From assembly GCA_965218425.1 (NCBI GenBank), contig OZ244621.1:1248001-1312000 (forward strand): a stretch of DNA of 64,000 nt, in the 5' to 3' direction. Below, in pieces: positions 18,001 to 27,000 of this stretch. Origin of the DNA: an uncultured Candidatus Binatia bacterium (GTDB lineage: Bacteria > Desulfobacterota > Binatia > UBA9968 > CAXXLF01). How positions within the stretch are numbered: position 1 is the first letter of the stretch; each line of letters begins with the position of its first letter. A program made the position numbers.

Positions 18001-21000
18001 ATTTCAGAGGACATGGGCTTATGCTTAACCATGACAAAGTCAAAACTGCCTATATCCTGAAGCCTGACCTCGGACAAGACAAGGATATCGTTTACCGACT
18101 GAAAGTGGTACCGGGCGATGTCCGTAAAAATAGCGTGGCTGTCCAGGAACCTCCGTGGACAAAGCGCCACTTCTTCGCCGTTGACATGCGCCGAACAGAC
18201 TCCAAAGGGATAATCAATAAGCCTGCTTTGCTTATAACAGACCTTCTCAACGAATGGGCACGAATGATTTCGTCTTGCCTCTTCAGCCTTGCTAGTCGTG
18301 TTCGAGAATGGAAAACCAAAGATCTCGGACGGATATTTTGCCATCTCTCAATTGCCTAATGCACTTCGCCAGAGTCGGTCTATTTCGGAATCGATGTTCT
18401 CACTATCCAGGCAGCAGCCTAATAATTGGGCGCAATCGCGACAAAAGCTAAAACTGTCGTTACAATTAATTGTCGGTTGTTGTCCGCAAATTGTTCCACC
18501 GATGAGCATTCAGAGCCACCGTCGACTTCACCAAGCACAGCGATCTTACGCCACCCCGCCGAGGTTGGCTTACGTTCAATCGGAGCAACTGCCCAATTCC
18601 CTGCATCTCGTATTCGGTCGTCAAATAGACGTCGGAGTGTCCCTGAGGTCTTCTGCGAAAATATGGGATTATTCTCCAAGGAAGTGTAAGGAAACGAGTA
18701 AGCATGATGCGAAAAGACATGGCGAATTGCCCCCGGTCTTCTCTTTTCCGACCCTTTATACCCGCATAGGAGCGAGTTAAATTCCAGCGACGTAGAAACG
18801 AGCAAGCCCAACCATAATCGATGTCTGGGATCTACCGAATCGAGCAATGTTTTGACAGCACTGACGTACAGCAACTGCCTTGGCGTGAACAGATCCAAGT
18901 AATTTGTGATGTTTTTCCCCAGTAAATCAGATGACTTGGGCCCGCCAAAAATTCTAAGAGATTCTTTGTCTGGTAGACGAGTCCGGGTGCATGTCTTCTT
19001 GGCCTTCGCAATTAAGTCGAGATCGCGTTTATCGACCGCCTTAAAAAAATTGGCCATCAGTTGGACAGAAGCCTGCGTTGATGAGTGGTACGTAGCGCTC
19101 AGGAAAAGATAACTCTGTCATGTTCCCCAGGGATTTCCCGCAAATCTGACAGCCAGTCTCGCCTTTCTCCAAGAGGGTCCATTGATGTCGCCCATGTTTC
19201 ACTTGCCCCGATGGATAATAATCCTCGATTCGCTTGTTGTCCCCATTTGGCTCTTCTCTCAGAAGACTCGAATCGAGGACCAATGCTTCACCACAGCTAC
19301 AAGATTTTCGCACGCCATAAAGAACAAACTGGAGTTCAGACGCTTGACGGCACGTTACGCATTGTGTTTGGAAATACGGGCGGAGCTTCTTTTCAAGTTC
19401 TCCTAAAAAACGTAGAAAAACTGGTTCCTTCTCTTCAATTGGAATCTGCAGTAATGACGCACGAACTTGCAACACGGGCACAGGGTCAAGGTCATACCCG
19501 ATTACACTTGCCCCAAGACGGATAGCTTCGTGAACAGTTGTACCACCCCCCATCATCGGATCGAGGACGGTAATACCCTCCAATCCCCCAGGAGCATAGT
19601 AATCCCGAAGTTTCTCATCCGGGACTAGCTGTTTTAGGATGTAGCGAAATATAGTTCCTGACCTTCGCGCCCACCATTTGTGGAGGTAAGTATTCGGTCG
19701 GAAGAGGTTCTTATTGAACGACTCCAAATGAGCTAGGCCATTTGCATCTTTTTCAGGAAATGACTCATTGATTGGAGCAGAAGCCAGCGGCTTTTGTTGC
19801 TTTCGCTCGTAAAACTGGATTTCAACCTGTTGCCGTGCCATGCCGGTAAACTACCTGCGCGAATGGGTGCTTGCAAGCTAAAAAACGACCTCAGTTTCCC
19901 TCAGAGAAAAATCCGCGTTTGGTCTATAACGGCTCCTCCCGAACGGCCTGGAAGACTTTTTCCGCAACCTCGCTGTACTCCGTCTTCTCAGGACGGACAA
20001 ATGTCAGTCCGCTGGTGATGGGAGACCCTGGCTCCTGGTCTTCCAGAAGCTGAGCCACCTCCACCCGAAAGAGTGACATGAAGGGGACCGACCCGAGGGA
20101 TTCTTGAATCTCCTGTGCCATTCCCTTGATGTAGTAATTGATCCCGGCGTCGGTAACTAAAAGCGTGATTTTCCCCGCCCGCCTCAAGTTCTTGCCCGTG
20201 GTGCTGGTCTTTCCCACCGCTATATGGATTTGCTTCTCGCTCTTGGCCACGATCTCGCAATAGGACAGCACGGCGGGATGGCACCATCCCTGCTCGTCCA
20301 CGGTAACAATGATAATGGCCTTCCCTTCCTTCGACCCAATATCGTTACCACTGAGTCGACCCAGCAACTCCTCGTTAATAACCTTACCCAAAAGCTTGGA
20401 CATCATTTCCCCCCTAAGGGATTATCATCTCATTGCCGTAAAGATCTCCGATCCGATTGACGAATCACTATTGACCGATGACCCATTCCTGCCTCTTACC
20501 GAATCCCTGTTCGTTGTCGATATAAAATACACGAGTCGGCTTGACGCAGTAGAATTTCACCTTGAGAAAGGCTCGATTGAGGATACCACTGCTGGGATCA
20601 CTGAATATCTTAATAATCCCAGGGTACTTACGTGCATAGACCGCCATGGCCTTTGCCTTTGAAATGACCGCTCCAACCTCCACCACCTCGCCTTCCATCT
20701 GAATGCCTTTGATCTTGCGCCAATCGCTGTAATCTTCCTGAATCGTTACCGCGACTTTCGAATTATCCTGCAAATTCTGACAGTGGCGTGATTGAGGATC
20801 AGAAAAGAAATAGAGATCCAACCCATCGCTTGCATAAAACACGGTGGCTGCCCAAGGGATATTTTCCCCGCAGGTGCCCAAGGTCATGGTGTTATGGCCT
20901 TCCACGTAACTCAGGATCCGTCGCTTTAAATCTTCAGCCATAGAACCAGCTATGAGCTATCAGTCGTCAGCTTTCAGCTTCGATCCCCCGCCACCCATAG

Positions 21001-24000: not shown

Positions 24001-27000
24001 GAGGCATTTCGCTCCGGATTGCACCTGGCCGCCTTCCCCCGCATTCACCACCGTTGCCAACACCGCAGAGGCACGCGCTTTCTGGACGCTGATTAGCTCT
24101 TCAATCAACTCGCTCATTCTTTTGTTGGAGTCTCTTCCGCGCCCTTCCACCAAGGATCGATGAAGACGTTCATTATGCCACCGCAGACAGCGGGGCTATC
24201 CGAAGAGATATCGTCAAGGAGATCCACCCGCACTACCTTGGGCTTCCGCGTCCGGATGACTTCAATGGCCTCACGACGCACATCCGCCTCACCGCAACCA
24301 CCACCAATGGTCCCTAAGATTTCCCCCCAGGCGGTCACGGCCATCTTTGCTCCCACCTCCCTAGGAGTGGACCCACGAGTGGAGACGATGGTGGCCACGG
24401 CTAGGGTTTCCCCTTTATCCAAGAATTCTTTGATTTGGTCATAAATCTCATCCATTGCACGACCTCCTAAGCAACCAGTCGTTGCATCGTGGAGCCTAAC
24501 GCAACAAGGCTCTGAACATTGTGAACTGACAAAAAGTAATCCAAATGAGGAAGCACCGCTTGCATTCCTTTACACAAGGGCTGGTAGTCCTTGCTGGCCA
24601 AAAGGGGATTGAGCCATATCACCTTATGGCACCGTCTCTTTAAGTTTATCATTTCCTGCTCCAGCAAAGCCACATTCCCCCGGTCCCAACCATCACTGAT
24701 GACCACCACAACGGTCCGATGGGTCACCAGACTAGGGGCAAATTCCCTATTGAAGGCGGAAAGGGAACGGCCGATATTGGTCCCCCCTGACCAGCCCAGC
24801 ACATCACCCGAGATTCTCTCCAGTGCGTTCACGATGTCCCGGGTACGAATCATATGAGTGATACGGGTTAGGGAGGTGCTGAACACGAAGGTCTCCACAC
24901 CCCAGAGTTCGTTCTGCAGGCCATACATAAACTGGATTAAAAAGCGGCTATAACAGTCCATGGAACCGCTCACGTCACAAAGCAGAATCACGCGGGTTTT
25001 CTTGATTCTGCGCTTGCGCGAGACGAGGTCAATTAACTCTCCCCCGTATTTAATGTTCTTTCGCATGGTCCAGCGTGGATCTATCTCATCTCCTTTGACG
25101 GACCGCTTTTTCCGACGGCTCACCTGTGTGGCGATCTTCGAAGCAATGAGGAGGATCGCACGGCTAATGGCCCGACTCTCTTCGATCCCCATTTCACTGA
25201 AGTCTTTTTGGTTCAATACTTCCTGGGGGCTGTAGGTGGGAAGCGACAAGGGATCCCCCTCCTCGTTCTGATCCTCTTCGCCGTTGGCCACCTCTGTGGT
25301 TTCCTCTTGAACTTCTCCCGGCTCATCCCAGCCTTCACGGGATAATGAAGATGGCATCACCAATTCTTCGGACTCCCCTTGCTCCTCGGCTTCAGACATT
25401 CCTTTCCAAAAACATTCAAAGACGCGGTCGAACAGGGGCATCTGCTCCCTTTCAGAGACTAAGTTCGAACGAAGGACTGAGTAAAAGTCTTCTCGACGTC
25501 CGATATCCACGAATTCAAGGGAGCGGCTGGCATCCATCACCTGGCTCAGCCCCACCCTGAGGCCCAGATCTTTCATCACTCGCCCAAAGGCCAGCAGGTT
25601 CGGCAACAGTCCCGTTCCGCGCACTTTGGCGAAAGACTGAACCGTCTTGATAATATCTTGATCGGTGGGCTCTTCAGTGCTCATCTTAGGATTGAAACCT
25701 CGCTGGTTCTTTGAGAATGCCGCCCAAATCCAGTTTCTTGTTGGTCACCTCTTCCTGCAGGTGGTGAAGGTCCTCTTTGTATTTAAAGACACATCCCATG
25801 GTTTCCTCCAGGGTCTTTTCGTCCAGTTGCTCGCGATGGAGGGCCATCAGGGCGCAGGCCCAATCGAGGGTCTCCGCCACACCGGGGCGTTTGTAGAAAT
25901 TCATCTGTCGAACCTGTTGCATAAAGGCACAAATCTGCTTTGCCAAAAGCTCCCCCACTTGGTCGTACTTCGTGATGACAATCTCATATTCCTTTTCAAA
26001 GGTGGGGTATTCGATCCAATGGTAAAGGCACCGCCGCTTGAGCGCGTCATGAATCTCTCGAGTCCGGTTGGAGGTGAGAAAAACATAGGGTCGCTGTTTG
26101 GCGCGGATGGTCCCAATCTCAGGTATGGTGATTTGAAAATCAGAAAGCACCTCTAAAAGAAAGGCCTCAAACTCCATATCCGCGCGATCGATTTCGTCGA
26201 TCAAGAGGACCGGTGGCGTGGAGCCCTCACTCTGTATGGCCTCCAATAGCGGCCGTTTAACGATGTACTCCTCTGTAAAGATCTCGGTTTCCAGATTCTT
26301 CCGGTCACCTTGCCCCACCTCCTCTAACTTGATGCGCAGCATCTGCTTGGGATAGTTCCATTCGTAAAGAGCCGTGTTCGCATCCAATCCCTCATAACAC
26401 TGGAGACGGATCAGGCGCGACTCCATGACCTCGGCAAGGACCTTGGCGATCTCCGTCTTGCCAACTCCAGCCTCCCCCTCTAGGAGCACAGGCTTGCCCA
26501 TTTGAACGGAGAGAAAGACCACGGTGGCCAGGCTCCTGTCGCAGATATATTGTTGTTTTCTCAATACTTCCTGAATCTTTTCAATGGTGAGTTTTTTCGG
26601 AATCATCGCCACCTCTCCCTTATGATATAAAGACGATTACCATACTCTGTTTCCCCCTGGGGATCAATGTCTTCAGACCGCCCGGACCGCCTCCCCATGA
26701 CACCCCAAACTTAATGTACTTTACGCCGACCGCCCCAAGCAAGAGGTGAAAACCCCGCACTTCCATGGGCTCAGTCCGGCTTTTGATTTCCTTGCAGTCG
26801 CCCCTGGTATTTTTGCCATGCCCCATCCCACCTTCGACGGATCTCGTCTACTGGGGCTTGAAATTCATCAATCCTCCGGAGGGTTTGAACTAGAAGTCGT
26901 ACGCTACCTTCAACATCCTTCAAGTGGACCCCCTCTGGGGCGATCACTCTTGCACCCTGGTTATGGTAATTTCTGAGCGGAACGGCCATTCCCCCAGCCA

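Follow-up and report, generated by a model that had tools for sequence, protein, structure and literature searches.

Why would a bacterium place the maturation of its molybdenum enzymes and the supply of prenylated FMN (prFMN) in the same operon? The question is raised by nine minus-strand open reading frames at positions 19924–26606 of the window, which is the whole 64,000-nt stretch of DNA that we analyzed (contig OZ244621.1 of assembly GCA_965218425.1, positions 1,248,001–1,312,000; all feature coordinates below are those of the stretch). The host is a soil bacterium, an uncultured Candidatus Binatia whose genome is a single contig and 97.3% complete. The initial annotation described the locus as a dedicated supply line for prFMN and for molybdenum cofactor insertion, and all nine genes that it listed are in the places and on the strand given, with Pfam and NCBIfam matches that agree. 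The reading that we favor, and in which we have moderate confidence, is that one housekeeping operon holds the genome's only copies of the modules that build prFMN and mature the molybdenum cofactor, joined because the clients of the two modules work together.

The upstream part of the operon is the molybdenum module. Its first gene (25686–26606; 306 aa) encodes a MoxR/CoxD-like AAA+ ATPase (AAA_5, 46.8 bits in Pfam) with intact Walker A (GEAGVGKT) and Walker B (VLLIDE) motifs; the ATG at 26606 lies 5 nt from an upstream GGAGAGG ribosome-binding site, and a GTG at 26612 is a possible alternative start (308 aa). The second (24467–25684; 405 aa) encodes a CoxE-like VWA protein (PF05762 VWA_CoxE, 210.2 bits) with a DVSGS MIDAS motif. 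MadB and MadC are the sole named NCBIfam models that these two proteins matched, far under the cutoffs (for MoxR, MadB at 274.8 bits against a cutoff of 475). The next two genes had been read as two XdhC. There are indeed two genes, but together they form one naturally split XdhC: the first (24114–24455; 113 aa; XdhC_CoxI, 88.8 bits) is an N-terminal-domain protein that covers positions 1–99 of the 346-position NF045664 profile, and the second (23314–24153; 279 aa; XdhC_C, 152 bits) carries the Rossmann domain and covers positions 104–345. A stop codon follows the first half in all 23 Binatia-type loci among the 80 loci that we fetched, and the two genes overlap by a median of 40 nt. tblastn identified this as the genome's sole XdhC.

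XdhC occurs in xanthine dehydrogenase operons, and we take MoxR, VWA, and XdhC to be the equivalents of CoxD, CoxE, and CoxF in the CO dehydrogenase cluster of Afipia (Oligotropha) carboxidovorans. Like that trio, they comprise a MoxR AAA+ protein, a CoxE-family VWA protein, and XdhC/CoxI-domain proteins, with the Walker and MIDAS motifs intact; unlike it, they include an XdhC divided between two overlapping genes, are joined to prFMN genes, and do not stand beside a structural Mo-hydroxylase gene. With the closest CoxL gene ~27 kb from the operon, the molybdenum module has no client next to it. As a CoxD/E/F-type helper set, the module would finish the molybdenum cofactor and insert it into ~33 xanthine-dehydrogenase/CoxL-type enzymes.

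The downstream part of the operon would provide prFMN. Its UbiX flavin prenyltransferase (22116–22820; 234 aa) scored 271.5 bits against NF004685 (cutoff 188) and 131.8 bits against Flavoprotein, and carries a basic, low-complexity C-terminal tail of ~45 aa. That it is the genome's only UbiX was borne out by tblastn and by a PF02441 search, whose two matches are this protein and a 411-aa frame that we take, from its length, to be CoaBC. The type-2 (FMN-dependent) IPP:DMAPP isomerase, IDI-2 (21024–22097; 357 aa), scored 410.8 bits against TIGR02151 (cutoff 281.3) and 84 bits against FMN_dh. Because the genome has two matches to IspH and none to HMG-CoA reductase, this is an MEP-pathway organism, in which IDI-2 is an extra.

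Two PNPOx-fold proteins complete the module. The first (20468–20941; 157 aa; PNPOx_N, 53.2 bits) is an FMN-binding protein of the YhbP/general-stress-protein-26 type. It scored 55.5 bits against the YhbP model, under the cutoff of 176, matched PDB 3ec6 at E 3.5e-6 in a profile search, and adjoins UbiX in another locus as well (L038); hhalign detected no relation between it and the second protein. That second protein (g01265; 19924–20406; 160 aa; PNPOx_N, 28.4 bits, cutoff 28.1) had been said to resemble YclD/BsdD. The likeness to YclD stands, but not that to a BsdD-type subunit; the best match in both sequence and fold is PhdC. Against PhdC (9srg), E was 7.2e-5 with a single sequence and 6.5e-6 with a profile; the predicted model (pLDDT 85.6) returned only PhdC among its top Foldseek matches (TM 0.74–0.78), and VIA-align superposed it on PhdC with Z 17.4–17.7 over 143–146 residues, the next family reaching Z 12.7. 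Its E51 corresponds to PhdC Glu47 and is invariant in all 25 rows of the alignment; sequence comparison did not locate a counterpart of PhdC's second catalytic glutamate (Glu136, in an ExW motif). We regard g01265 as a candidate prFMN oxidative maturase of the PhdC/YclD type.

The remaining gene of this module encodes a short PF01982 kinase that resembles RibK (CTP-dep_RFKase; 22840–23265; 141 aa; ATG start kept in four of four relatives). It scored 91.4 bits against PF01982 (cutoff 25) and fell under both NCBIfam RibK equivalog cutoffs (51.9 versus 168 and 65.7 versus 279 bits); it matched MJ0056 at E 3.7e-10, and its predicted model matches 2vbu, 2vbv, and 5trd (MJ0056 and RbkR) at TM 0.77–0.82. 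PF01982 has one match in this genome, and among 14 control genomes it was found in four, all archaea, and in no bacterial control. The initial annotation was right that the family is widespread in the order; its count from gene calls was 96 of 122 genomes, and ours is 113 of 123 (57 of the 58 high-quality genomes), a tally that includes the unpublished genomes G093, G051, G054, and G073. The gene is fragmented in three of the 123 (G018, G078, and G121), and one locus (L054) is frameshifted.

In a tree of 85 aligned sequences, 52 form a short subclass that is apart from the long class and that has, to our knowledge, no characterized member. Its motifs are W-V, FCxAR, and PEV, versus GLGEG, xGYR, RTFG, and PER in the characterized long class, and 21 columns are invariant across 23 aligned kinases. 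The W-V pair stands where Tyr115, an "absolutely conserved" flavin-contact tyrosine, was expected. The CTP loop has lost two of its three glycines in the Binatia-type set (Asp takes the place of Gly102 in 23 of 24 sequences, and Ala that of Gly106 in 22 of 24), and the GEG glutamate is kept in only 2 of 24; what was GxGEG has degenerated to D-L-G-x-A within the order. Other positions are retained. Reading the alignment against the residue list of PMC5397151, the putative base Glu195 corresponds to E115 of the kinase, T131-L132-N133 to T43-L44-N45, Phe165 to F76, Pro185 to P104, and Tyr190 to Y109; Glu195 and T-L-N are kept throughout except in the frameshifted L054, and at five of six flavin-contact positions the residue is either the same or a conservative replacement. 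Compared with the RibK set, namely MJ0056 (PDB 2VBU/2VBV) and the kinase domain of RbkR from T. acidophilum (PDB 3CTA/5TRD; PMC5397151), the operon kinase shares the Pfam family, a cradle-loop barrel fold, the putative base, T-L-N, and most flavin contacts, but differs in W-V for Tyr115, an invariant Cys (in FCxAR), and Lys for Arg203. Given the altered tyrosine and glycines, "CTP-dependent" and "riboflavin" are predictions at the level of the family, as the initial annotation had cautioned.

The short subclass also differs from RibK in the company it keeps, since another riboflavin kinase accompanies it in all genomes checked. In this genome the single flavokinase match, a 377-aa frame at contig position 2977366, is taken as RibF, in line with the earlier view that the operon kinase is an extra. 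The same pairing with RibF holds in four of four other bacteria, and all six archaea checked (five of five Bathyarchaeia genomes and Geoglobus) have a canonical long RibK alongside the short kinase. This coexistence suggests a paralogue whose substrate may differ.

We infer the enzymatic steps of the operon proteins from these assignments. The short kinase would make FMN beside UbiX, with riboflavin as its most likely substrate and its nucleotide uncertain; IDI-2 would raise DMAPP in an MEP-pathway organism with no other need for an isomerase; UbiX would make prFMNH2 from dimethylallyl phosphate and reduced FMN; and the PhdC/YclD-like protein would oxidize prFMNH2 to the active iminium form. 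The YhbP-like protein may reduce or carry flavin, which is the weakest of the assignments. Among the nine genes there is no enzyme that converts DMAPP to DMAP and no FMN reductase. The product would supply 72 UbiD enzymes.

Is the junction between the two modules meaningful? Each of the nine proteins is single in the genome (tblastn, 1e-4; weak second matches for IDI-2 at 31% and MoxR at 27%). The array is kept in all 23 Binatia-type loci, 16 with IDI-2 and 7 lacking it, and in three of three genomes of the same family. Across the 23 loci the median gap is –4 nt between MoxR and VWA, 21 nt (range 1–117) between XdhC_C and the kinase, and 6 nt between the kinase and UbiX; at the Mo/prFMN junction the shortest gaps are 1–2 nt. 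Mean identity is highest for the XdhC N-terminal protein (87%), is 78% for MoxR, and is lowest for the kinase (45.5%). A promoter-like motif, TTGATC and TATGGT with a 17-nt spacer, lies 5' of MoxR (26639–26667, minus strand) and is the only conserved one; its core is invariant in four of four genomes of the family, and it matches the consensus at 8 of 12 positions, under the threshold of a consensus scan. Among relatives, the spacer that separates XdhC from the kinase differs in both length and sequence, and their alignment revealed no conserved internal promoter there; no Rfam family matched in 18000–28600. The operon is probably read from the promoter 5' of MoxR, and spacing and conservation point to co-transcription of the nine genes.

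The clients offer a reason for joining the modules. We counted 72 PF01977 matches and, after merging 35 PF02738 matches, 33 CoxL-type loci, the same numbers of UbiD and XDH/CoxL-type enzymes as reported at the outset. Of these CoxL loci, 13 lie within 5 kb of a UbiD (center to center), whereas 2000 random placements gave 4.4 on average and never more than 12; by edge-to-edge distance, 12 of the 33 have a UbiD within 3 kb, which shares their strand in 10 cases. Mixed operons include TctC-UbiD-CoxL-UbiD-cupin and CoA ligase-CoxS-CoxL-CoxM-UbiD. Mo-hydroxylase and UbiD genes thus often share catabolic operons, and co-transcription of the two modules probably reflects this cooperation between their clients. 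The client operons also contain cupin and luciferase-like monooxygenase genes, and the host looks like an oxygen-using organism. Single copies, a conserved array, a promoter-like motif 5' of MoxR only, linkage of kinase and UbiX elsewhere, and an extra IDI-2 all support the idea of a dedicated supply line. Points that weigh against our reading are the distance from the molybdenum module to any CoxL client, the 7 arrays that lack IDI-2, the missing DMAP and FMN-reduction steps, the unplaced PhdC glutamate, and the departures of the kinase from RibK in score, residues, rate of evolution, and genomic company.

Three other explanations must be weighed against this one. In the first, the rest of the operon would do what we propose, but the short PF01982 protein would be something other than a plain CTP-dependent riboflavin kinase: it could convert reduced riboflavin directly to FMNH2, act on another flavin, use a donor other than CTP, or be a flavin-binding protein that hands over to UbiX with little kinase activity. 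Its distinct motifs and tree position, the canonical enzyme alongside it in six of six archaeal and five of five bacterial genomes, the replaced tyrosine and glycines, the subthreshold equivalog scores, and its standing as the fastest-evolving gene of the array argue for such a role. We nevertheless consider it unlikely, because Glu195, T-L-N (outside L054), and most flavin contacts persist, the predicted fold is that of MJ0056, and the simplest way to feed UbiX is to convert riboflavin to FMN. HAD phosphatases act in riboflavin synthesis, and the HAD-phosphatase fusions or neighbors of some short kinases (L031, L056, and P0167–P0169) would fit flavin metabolism.

The other two explanations concern the molybdenum genes. 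The modules could be functionally unrelated, two operons that happened to be placed head to tail in the order's ancestor, leaving a junction without meaning. Consistent with this, none of the 57 other fetched loci carries MoxR, VWA, or XdhC beside the kinase, so the kinase–UbiX module does without them outside the order, and we found no open-access paper that links XdhC with UbiX in the sense of a joint operon. A chance meeting seems rather improbable, however, for a junction retained in every Binatia-type locus and family genome with gaps down to 1–2 nt and no conserved internal promoter, between modules that are the genome's only copies and whose clients lie together significantly more often than at random and occur in common operons. 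Alternatively, MoxR-VWA-XdhC could, in addition or instead, serve as ATP-driven chaperones and load the 72 UbiD apo-enzymes with prFMN. The trio is tightly and stably joined to prFMN genes, its MoxR and VWA score far below MadB and MadC, its XdhC_N is unusually conserved, and UbiD enzymes need diverse, partly unidentified maturation helpers (PMC10865409). We find this very improbable: the operon has the only XdhC, CoxE-VWA, and CoxD-like set for ~33 enzymes of a family that normally needs them, VWA_CoxE and XdhC are well over their Pfam cutoffs, and the UbiX–kinase modules of other phyla lack the trio.

A joint supply operon for clients that work together, the reading that we prefer, has counterparts among known systems. 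In PMC13040415 and PMC10865409, UbiX/UbiD systems with accessory maturation proteins include PhdA-PhdB-PhdC of Mycolicibacterium fortuitum, YclD of Priestia/Bacillus, and LpdD of Lactobacillus plantarum, and the former source has PhdC and YclD activating UbiD enzymes. The operon shares with the Phd and YclD systems a UbiX that sits with a PhdC/YclD-fold protein bearing the Glu47 equivalent, and the logic that prFMN requires more than UbiX. It differs in that g01265 is only ~20% identical to PhdC, in having a second PNPOx-fold protein as well as IDI-2 and a PF01982 kinase, and in standing away from any single UbiD, with 72 that it would serve. UbiX also lies within 2 kb of the kinase in 5 of 14 other bacterial-labeled loci (Thermincola, Chloroflexota, Methylomirabilia, an alphaproteobacterium, and Aromatoleum) and in Geoglobus, and in no Bathyarchaeia locus is it near the short paralogue. 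In Aromatoleum, Thermincola, and others, the short kinase and UbiX are immediate neighbors, at times accompanied by IDI-2, a HAD phosphatase, or a PNPOx-like protein. Compared with these kinase–UbiX modules, the operon stands alone, is order-wide, and is fused to molybdenum cofactor maturation genes.

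Nine open reading frames run head to tail on the minus strand of the window, from position 26606 to position 19924 (ORF listing), and their Pfam and NCBIfam assignments bear out the gene content given in the initial annotation: nine genes, one strand, and the families claimed. The first encodes a MoxR-type AAA+ ATPase whose Walker A and Walker B motifs are intact, and the second a CoxE-family VWA protein (210 bits) in which the DxSxS MIDAS motif is present; the ATPase did not reach the NCBIfam equivalog cut-off for MadB (274.8 bits vs 475), nor did the VWA protein reach that for MadC (74.8 bits vs 600). 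These are followed by a 113-aa XdhC N-terminal-domain protein (24114–24455, minus strand), a 279-aa XdhC Rossmann-domain protein, a 141-aa PF01982 domain protein (91.4 bits vs a cut-off of 25, profile positions 1–119 of 121), UbiX (NF004685 271.5 bits, cut-off 188; TIGR00421 237.3 bits, cut-off 108.9), a type-2 IPP isomerase (IDI-2; TIGR02151 410.8 bits, cut-off 281.3, positions 1–335 of 338), and two PNPOx-fold proteins of 157 and 160 aa. By tblastn, each gene of the cluster is the sole one of its kind in the genome, including the XdhC genes, the CoxE-type VWA gene, and the CoxD-like ATPase gene. Genome-wide counts agree with what had been claimed for the rest of the genome: we found the 72 UbiD matches of the expanded family, a single UbiX together with one other flavoprotein-family gene, one PF01982 gene in addition to one RibF-type flavokinase (the former being the extra kinase), and 35 PF02738 matches that merge into 33 CoxL-type loci. 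We infer the functions of the operon from family, fold, residues, and context.

A scan at one genome per species yielded 80 loci encoding relatives of the kinase. The closest 23 bacterial loci (labeled Binatia or "Deltaproteobacteria") all share one gene order, MoxR-VWA-XdhC_N-XdhC_C-kinase-UbiX-(IDI-2)-PNPOx-PNPOx, with every gene on the same strand; as the genomes are related and hence not independent, this count overstates the support. Of the 23 arrays, 16 include IDI-2 and seven lack it. The same array occurs in three of three genomes examined from the window's own family, and 113 of the 123 genomes of the order have a PF01982 match (a tally that includes four unpublished genomes). Across the 23 loci, the median gap is −4 nt between MoxR and VWA, −40 nt between XdhC_N and XdhC_C, 21 nt (range 1–117) between XdhC_C and the kinase, and 6 nt between the kinase and UbiX. 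A stop codon follows XdhC_N in every one of the 23 loci, so the XdhC split is natural and not a frameshift. Upstream of MoxR, the motif TTGATC-17 nt-TATGGT (26639–26667) does not vary among the four family members aligned, while the spacer between XdhC_C and the kinase varies in length and sequence in the family alignment and holds no conserved motif. A search of 18000–28600 for riboswitches and other Rfam families gave no matches at E values up to 1, and a consensus promoter and terminator scan gave nothing convincing within the intergenic gaps. Given the operon-like gaps, the conserved motif upstream of MoxR, and the lack of one in the XdhC-kinase spacer, the most economical reading is that the nine genes would form a single transcription unit.

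Conservation within the array is uneven. The 113-aa XdhC N-domain protein is its most conserved gene product (83–91% identity over the 23 loci), exceeding UbiX and the ATPase, and the kinase is its least conserved (mean identity 45.5% vs 52–87% for the others). Three genomes of the order (G018, G078, and G121) have a fragmented kinase gene, and several array genes are split in one locus (L054); both may reflect gene decay or assembly error. Open frames of 338–397 aa had suggested an XdhC_C-kinase fusion, but we rejected this because the two matches lie in different frames in one locus (L019) and such long frames are common in GC-rich DNA.

The fifth gene product had been described as an archaeal-type CTP-dependent riboflavin kinase. 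Of that description, the PF01982 domain, the fold, and the putative catalytic base stand, while the CTP-site residues, Tyr115, and the equivalog scores speak against it. The predicted structure (pLDDT 84.8) has the cradle-loop barrel fold of the archaeal RibK MJ0056 and of T. acidophilum RbkR (taRbkR), with TM scores of 0.77–0.82 (0.77/0.82 to 2vbu, 0.77/0.81 to 2vbv, and 0.81 to 5trd). Residues were mapped by hand from a HMMER alignment to 3CTA (chain index = paper number + 2), using the list in PMC5397151. The putative active-site base Glu195 (taRbkR numbering) is kept as E115, which is invariant in all 23 rows of the kinase alignment, as are kept Thr131-Leu132-Asn133 (T43-L44-N45), Gly104 (G16), Phe165 (F76), Pro185 (P104), and Tyr190 (Y109; 14 of the 23 rows have Tyr and 9 have His). 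Tyr109 is conservatively changed to Phe, the residue also found in MJ0056. Tyr115, described as absolutely conserved in PMC5397151, is replaced by V27 beside an invariant W26; Trp is present in all 52 sequences of the short class defined below, and Tyr in the 32 of the long class. At the CTP site, Arg203 is changed to Lys and Leu202 to Val. Of the 24 Binatia-type kinase sequences, 23 have Asp in place of Gly102 and 22 have Ala in place of Gly106, a glycine that the window protein retains; the GEG glutamate is kept in just two. The NCBIfam cut-offs for RibK equivalogs were not reached (ribK_Meth 51.9 bits vs 168; PRK14165 65.7 bits vs 279).

An alignment and tree of 85 PF01982 sequences separates two classes. 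The long class (n = 32) is usually fused to a wHTH domain, carries the motifs GLGEG, xGYR, RTFG, and PER, and contains both characterized enzymes, MJ0056 and taRbkR. The short class (n = 52), with the motifs W-V, FCxAR, and PEV, holds the window kinase, all of the bacterial sequences, and many from Bathyarchaeia. In the genomes checked, a short-class protein is never the sole riboflavin kinase: five of five Bathyarchaeia genomes encode a long and a short copy without RibF, Geoglobus has a long copy in addition to a short copy that adjoins UbiX and UbiD, and RibF is present in four of four other bacteria with a UbiX-linked short copy as well as in the window's own genome. Because of this separate class, the changed residues, the scores below cut-off, and the companion riboflavin kinases, we file the protein as a putative PF01982-family kinase of an uncharacterized subclass and treat neither "CTP-dependent" nor "riboflavin" as established. 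Its most likely reaction would be the conversion of riboflavin to FMN, since the product feeds UbiX and since the protein retains the base and most of its flavin contacts.

The link between the kinase and UbiX is robust. Beyond the Binatia-type arrays, UbiX lies within 2 kb of the kinase in 5 of 14 bacterial-labeled loci (Thermincola, Chloroflexota, Methylomirabilia, an alphaproteobacterium, and Aromatoleum buckelii), and in Desulfobacterium N47 UbiD genes lie within ~3 kb of it. A complex prediction for the kinase with UbiX residues 1–190 scored 0.00 against a mark of 0.32, which weighs neither for nor against binding. No kinase-UbiX fusion proteins were found, which is weak evidence of absence; the search for longer proteins gave three HAD-kinase fusions. 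We tentatively propose, as a reading that we regard as possible and still rather doubtful, that the short W-V/FCxAR subclass is an enzyme separate from the housekeeping riboflavin kinase and dedicated to the prenyl-flavin pathway wherever it stands beside UbiX, and that in this order the nine-gene operon is one "cofactor factory" matched to paired Mo-hydroxylase/UbiD catabolic modules. Such a dedicated enzyme might deliver flavin in a form ready for UbiX; it could, for instance, phosphorylate reduced riboflavin or draw on a nucleotide other than CTP.

Several features of the kinase loci outside the Binatia-type arrays are worth recording. The HAD-phosphatase-kinase fusions are 349–371 aa long (among L031:7302–8417, L056:8415–9113, and proteins P0167–P0169), and at one locus a HAD gene directly follows the kinase; the phosphatase might act on a riboflavin-pathway intermediate, on FMN, or on DMAPP. 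In Bathyarchaeia, the neighbors of the short paralogue (inositol-1-phosphate synthase, an acyl-CoA synthetase of the ADP-forming type, a CofE-like gene, and ThyX) give no clue to function. In Bathyarchaeia-type loci, the short PF01982 paralogue is always immediately preceded, on its own strand, by a 124–127-aa ORF without a Pfam family (L024:7564–7938, L032:7532–7909, L073:7581–7964, and L033:7579–7959); this ORF is flanked by the inositol-1-phosphate synthase-like and ADP-forming-type acyl-CoA synthetase genes. Locus labels were taken from the records, and that of L033 (Limnocylindrales) is doubtful: its gene order and the tree clade of its kinase match the Bathyarchaeia loci, and it may be mis-binned or transferred.

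For UbiX and IDI-2, family membership as judged from the profiles is unambiguous. IspH is matched twice in the genome and HMG-CoA reductase not at all, so DMAPP would already be supplied by the MEP pathway and IDI-2 is an extra; the loss of IDI-2 from 7 of the 23 arrays fits this. The operon genes leave the DMAPP-to-DMAP step and the reduction of FMN unexplained. UbiX itself carries a basic tail of ~45 residues (residues ~190–234, window 22116–22260, minus strand) in which Ser, Pro, and Lys are abundant and the final residues are KRRPAVKRRR; the tail lies beyond the 187-position family profile, and tblastn matches extend into it in some relatives.

The 160-aa product of the last gene had been annotated as a small flavin-binding protein, and the PNPOx fold behind that annotation is present, but the protein can be placed more closely, nearest to PhdC in both sequence and fold. 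As a single sequence, its best PDB match is PhdC (9srg, E 7.2e-5); with a 25-row profile the E value becomes 6.5e-6, and PhdC chains are the sole matches up to 0.01. Top Foldseek matches of the predicted structure (pLDDT 85.6) are all PhdC (TM 0.74–0.78). In VIA-align, the model superposes on PhdC with Z 17.4–17.7 over 143–146 residues, the C-terminal helix included (best superposition Z 17.7, rmsd 2.3, 143 residues, model 8–160 vs PhdC chain 4–150), and the next family scores Z 12.7. Glu47 of PhdC aligns with E51 (counted by hand on the alignment), a residue shared by all 25 rows. Glu136, from the C-terminal ExW motif of PhdC, was not placed, the sequence alignments ending at about residue 94; candidate acids for its role are the E122-D123 pair, which is invariant, E125, which is nearly so, or E143, which precedes the last helix. 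Trp138 of PhdC is not kept in YclD either, according to PMC13040415, which also reports that PhdC, like its distant homologue YclD, activates E. coli UbiD and converts prFMN by oxidation to the active iminium form, with PDB entries 9SRG and 9SRJ as structures from that work. We conclude that the last gene, on profile matches and the modeled fold, encodes a PhdC/YclD-type candidate prFMN oxidative maturase.

Across the 80 loci, the profile of this gene detected no PhdC-like ORFs beyond the 23 Binatia-type loci. The neighboring 157-aa PNPOx protein is of the YhbP/general-stress-protein-26 type, and in hhalign it shows no relation to the PhdC-like protein; an Atlas search with it returned generic PNPOx clusters only. 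Its own profile detected similar ORFs in the 23 Binatia-type loci and in one Methylomirabilia locus (L038), where the gene again adjoins UbiX. A role as flavin reductase or carrier is a guess.

MoxR, a CoxE-type VWA protein, and XdhC are the usual maturation trio of xanthine-dehydrogenase/CoxL-type enzymes. In this genome, the operon holds the sole such set for ~33 CoxL-type clients. It shares its families and its Walker and MIDAS motifs with the CoxD/CoxE/CoxF-type maturation set, but unlike that set it does not lie beside Mo-hydroxylase structural genes: no CoxL-type client adjoins it, and the nearest locus ends at genome position 1240654, ~27 kb from the operon start at 1267924. The junction of the molybdenum and prFMN genes is lineage-specific, being carried by none of the 57 other loci. 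One explanation for it would be that the MoxR-VWA-XdhC set helps to load prFMN into UbiD. We consider this very improbable because the Mo enzymes have no XdhC-type genes to draw on other than those of the operon. The distribution of the clients suggests a different reason. A UbiD gene is found within 5 kb for 13 of the 33 CoxL loci, whereas random placement (2000 trials) gave 4.4 such loci on average and 12 at most; 12 loci have one within 3 kb edge to edge, 10 of them on the same strand. Annotated client regions of the genome have the arrangements TctC-UbiD-CoxL-UbiD-cupin, a UbiD adjoining a divergently oriented CoxL, and CoA ligase-CoxS-CoxL-CoxM-UbiD-luciferase-like monooxygenase. Since UbiD and Mo-hydroxylase enzymes would thus often be made together, one promoter serving both cofactor lines would make sense. 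The three client regions are L081 (contig C1, 2899000–2909000), L082, and L083; in L081, CoxL has neither CoxS nor CoxM beside it.

Considered one by one, the components of this system are of types already known: accessory maturases that accompany UbiX (PMC13040415, PMC10865409), IDI-2, the PF01982 family, and CoxD/E/F-type helpers. What is new is their arrangement as a stand-alone, order-wide, single-copy operon fused to the sole Mo-cofactor maturation set, together with the kinase as a distinct paralogous subclass in both domains and with clients paired in operons. We found no description of the kinase-UbiX pairing in the open-access literature (subscription papers or supplements could hold one), no relevant open-access paper on the junction of XdhC with UbiX, and none on the pairing of Mo-hydroxylases with UbiD in Binatia. 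According to PMC10865409 and PMC13040415, UbiD activation is a practical bottleneck, many of these enzymes being inactive with UbiX alone and the helpers (LpdD, PhdC/YclD) being recent and few. With its kinase, UbiX, IDI-2, and pair of flavin-binding proteins, the operon supplies a compact helper set shaped by natural selection in an organism that has to load 72 UbiD enzymes, a concrete resource for unsolved UbiD activation that can be tested by co-expression, although it would not astonish a specialist. The short PF01982 subclass, which has no characterized member, may explain how FMN is channeled to UbiX, and the junction and shared client operons suggest that Mo-hydroxylase and UbiD pairs are a recurring catabolic unit in Binatia.

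Two flanking regions of the operon also drew our attention. Downstream by 82 nt, two overlapping genes (18419–19841, minus strand) encode a 266-aa protein with a weak DNA-methylase motif and two paralogues in the genome (34–36% identity), and a 212-aa protein with no family. GC content across the two genes is ~0.48 compared with 0.53 in the operon, and the 80 related loci contain neither gene; the pair may have been acquired as an insert. On the other side, a 357-aa ORF without a Pfam family (28467–29540, plus strand) lies in a stretch of raised GC (0.62).
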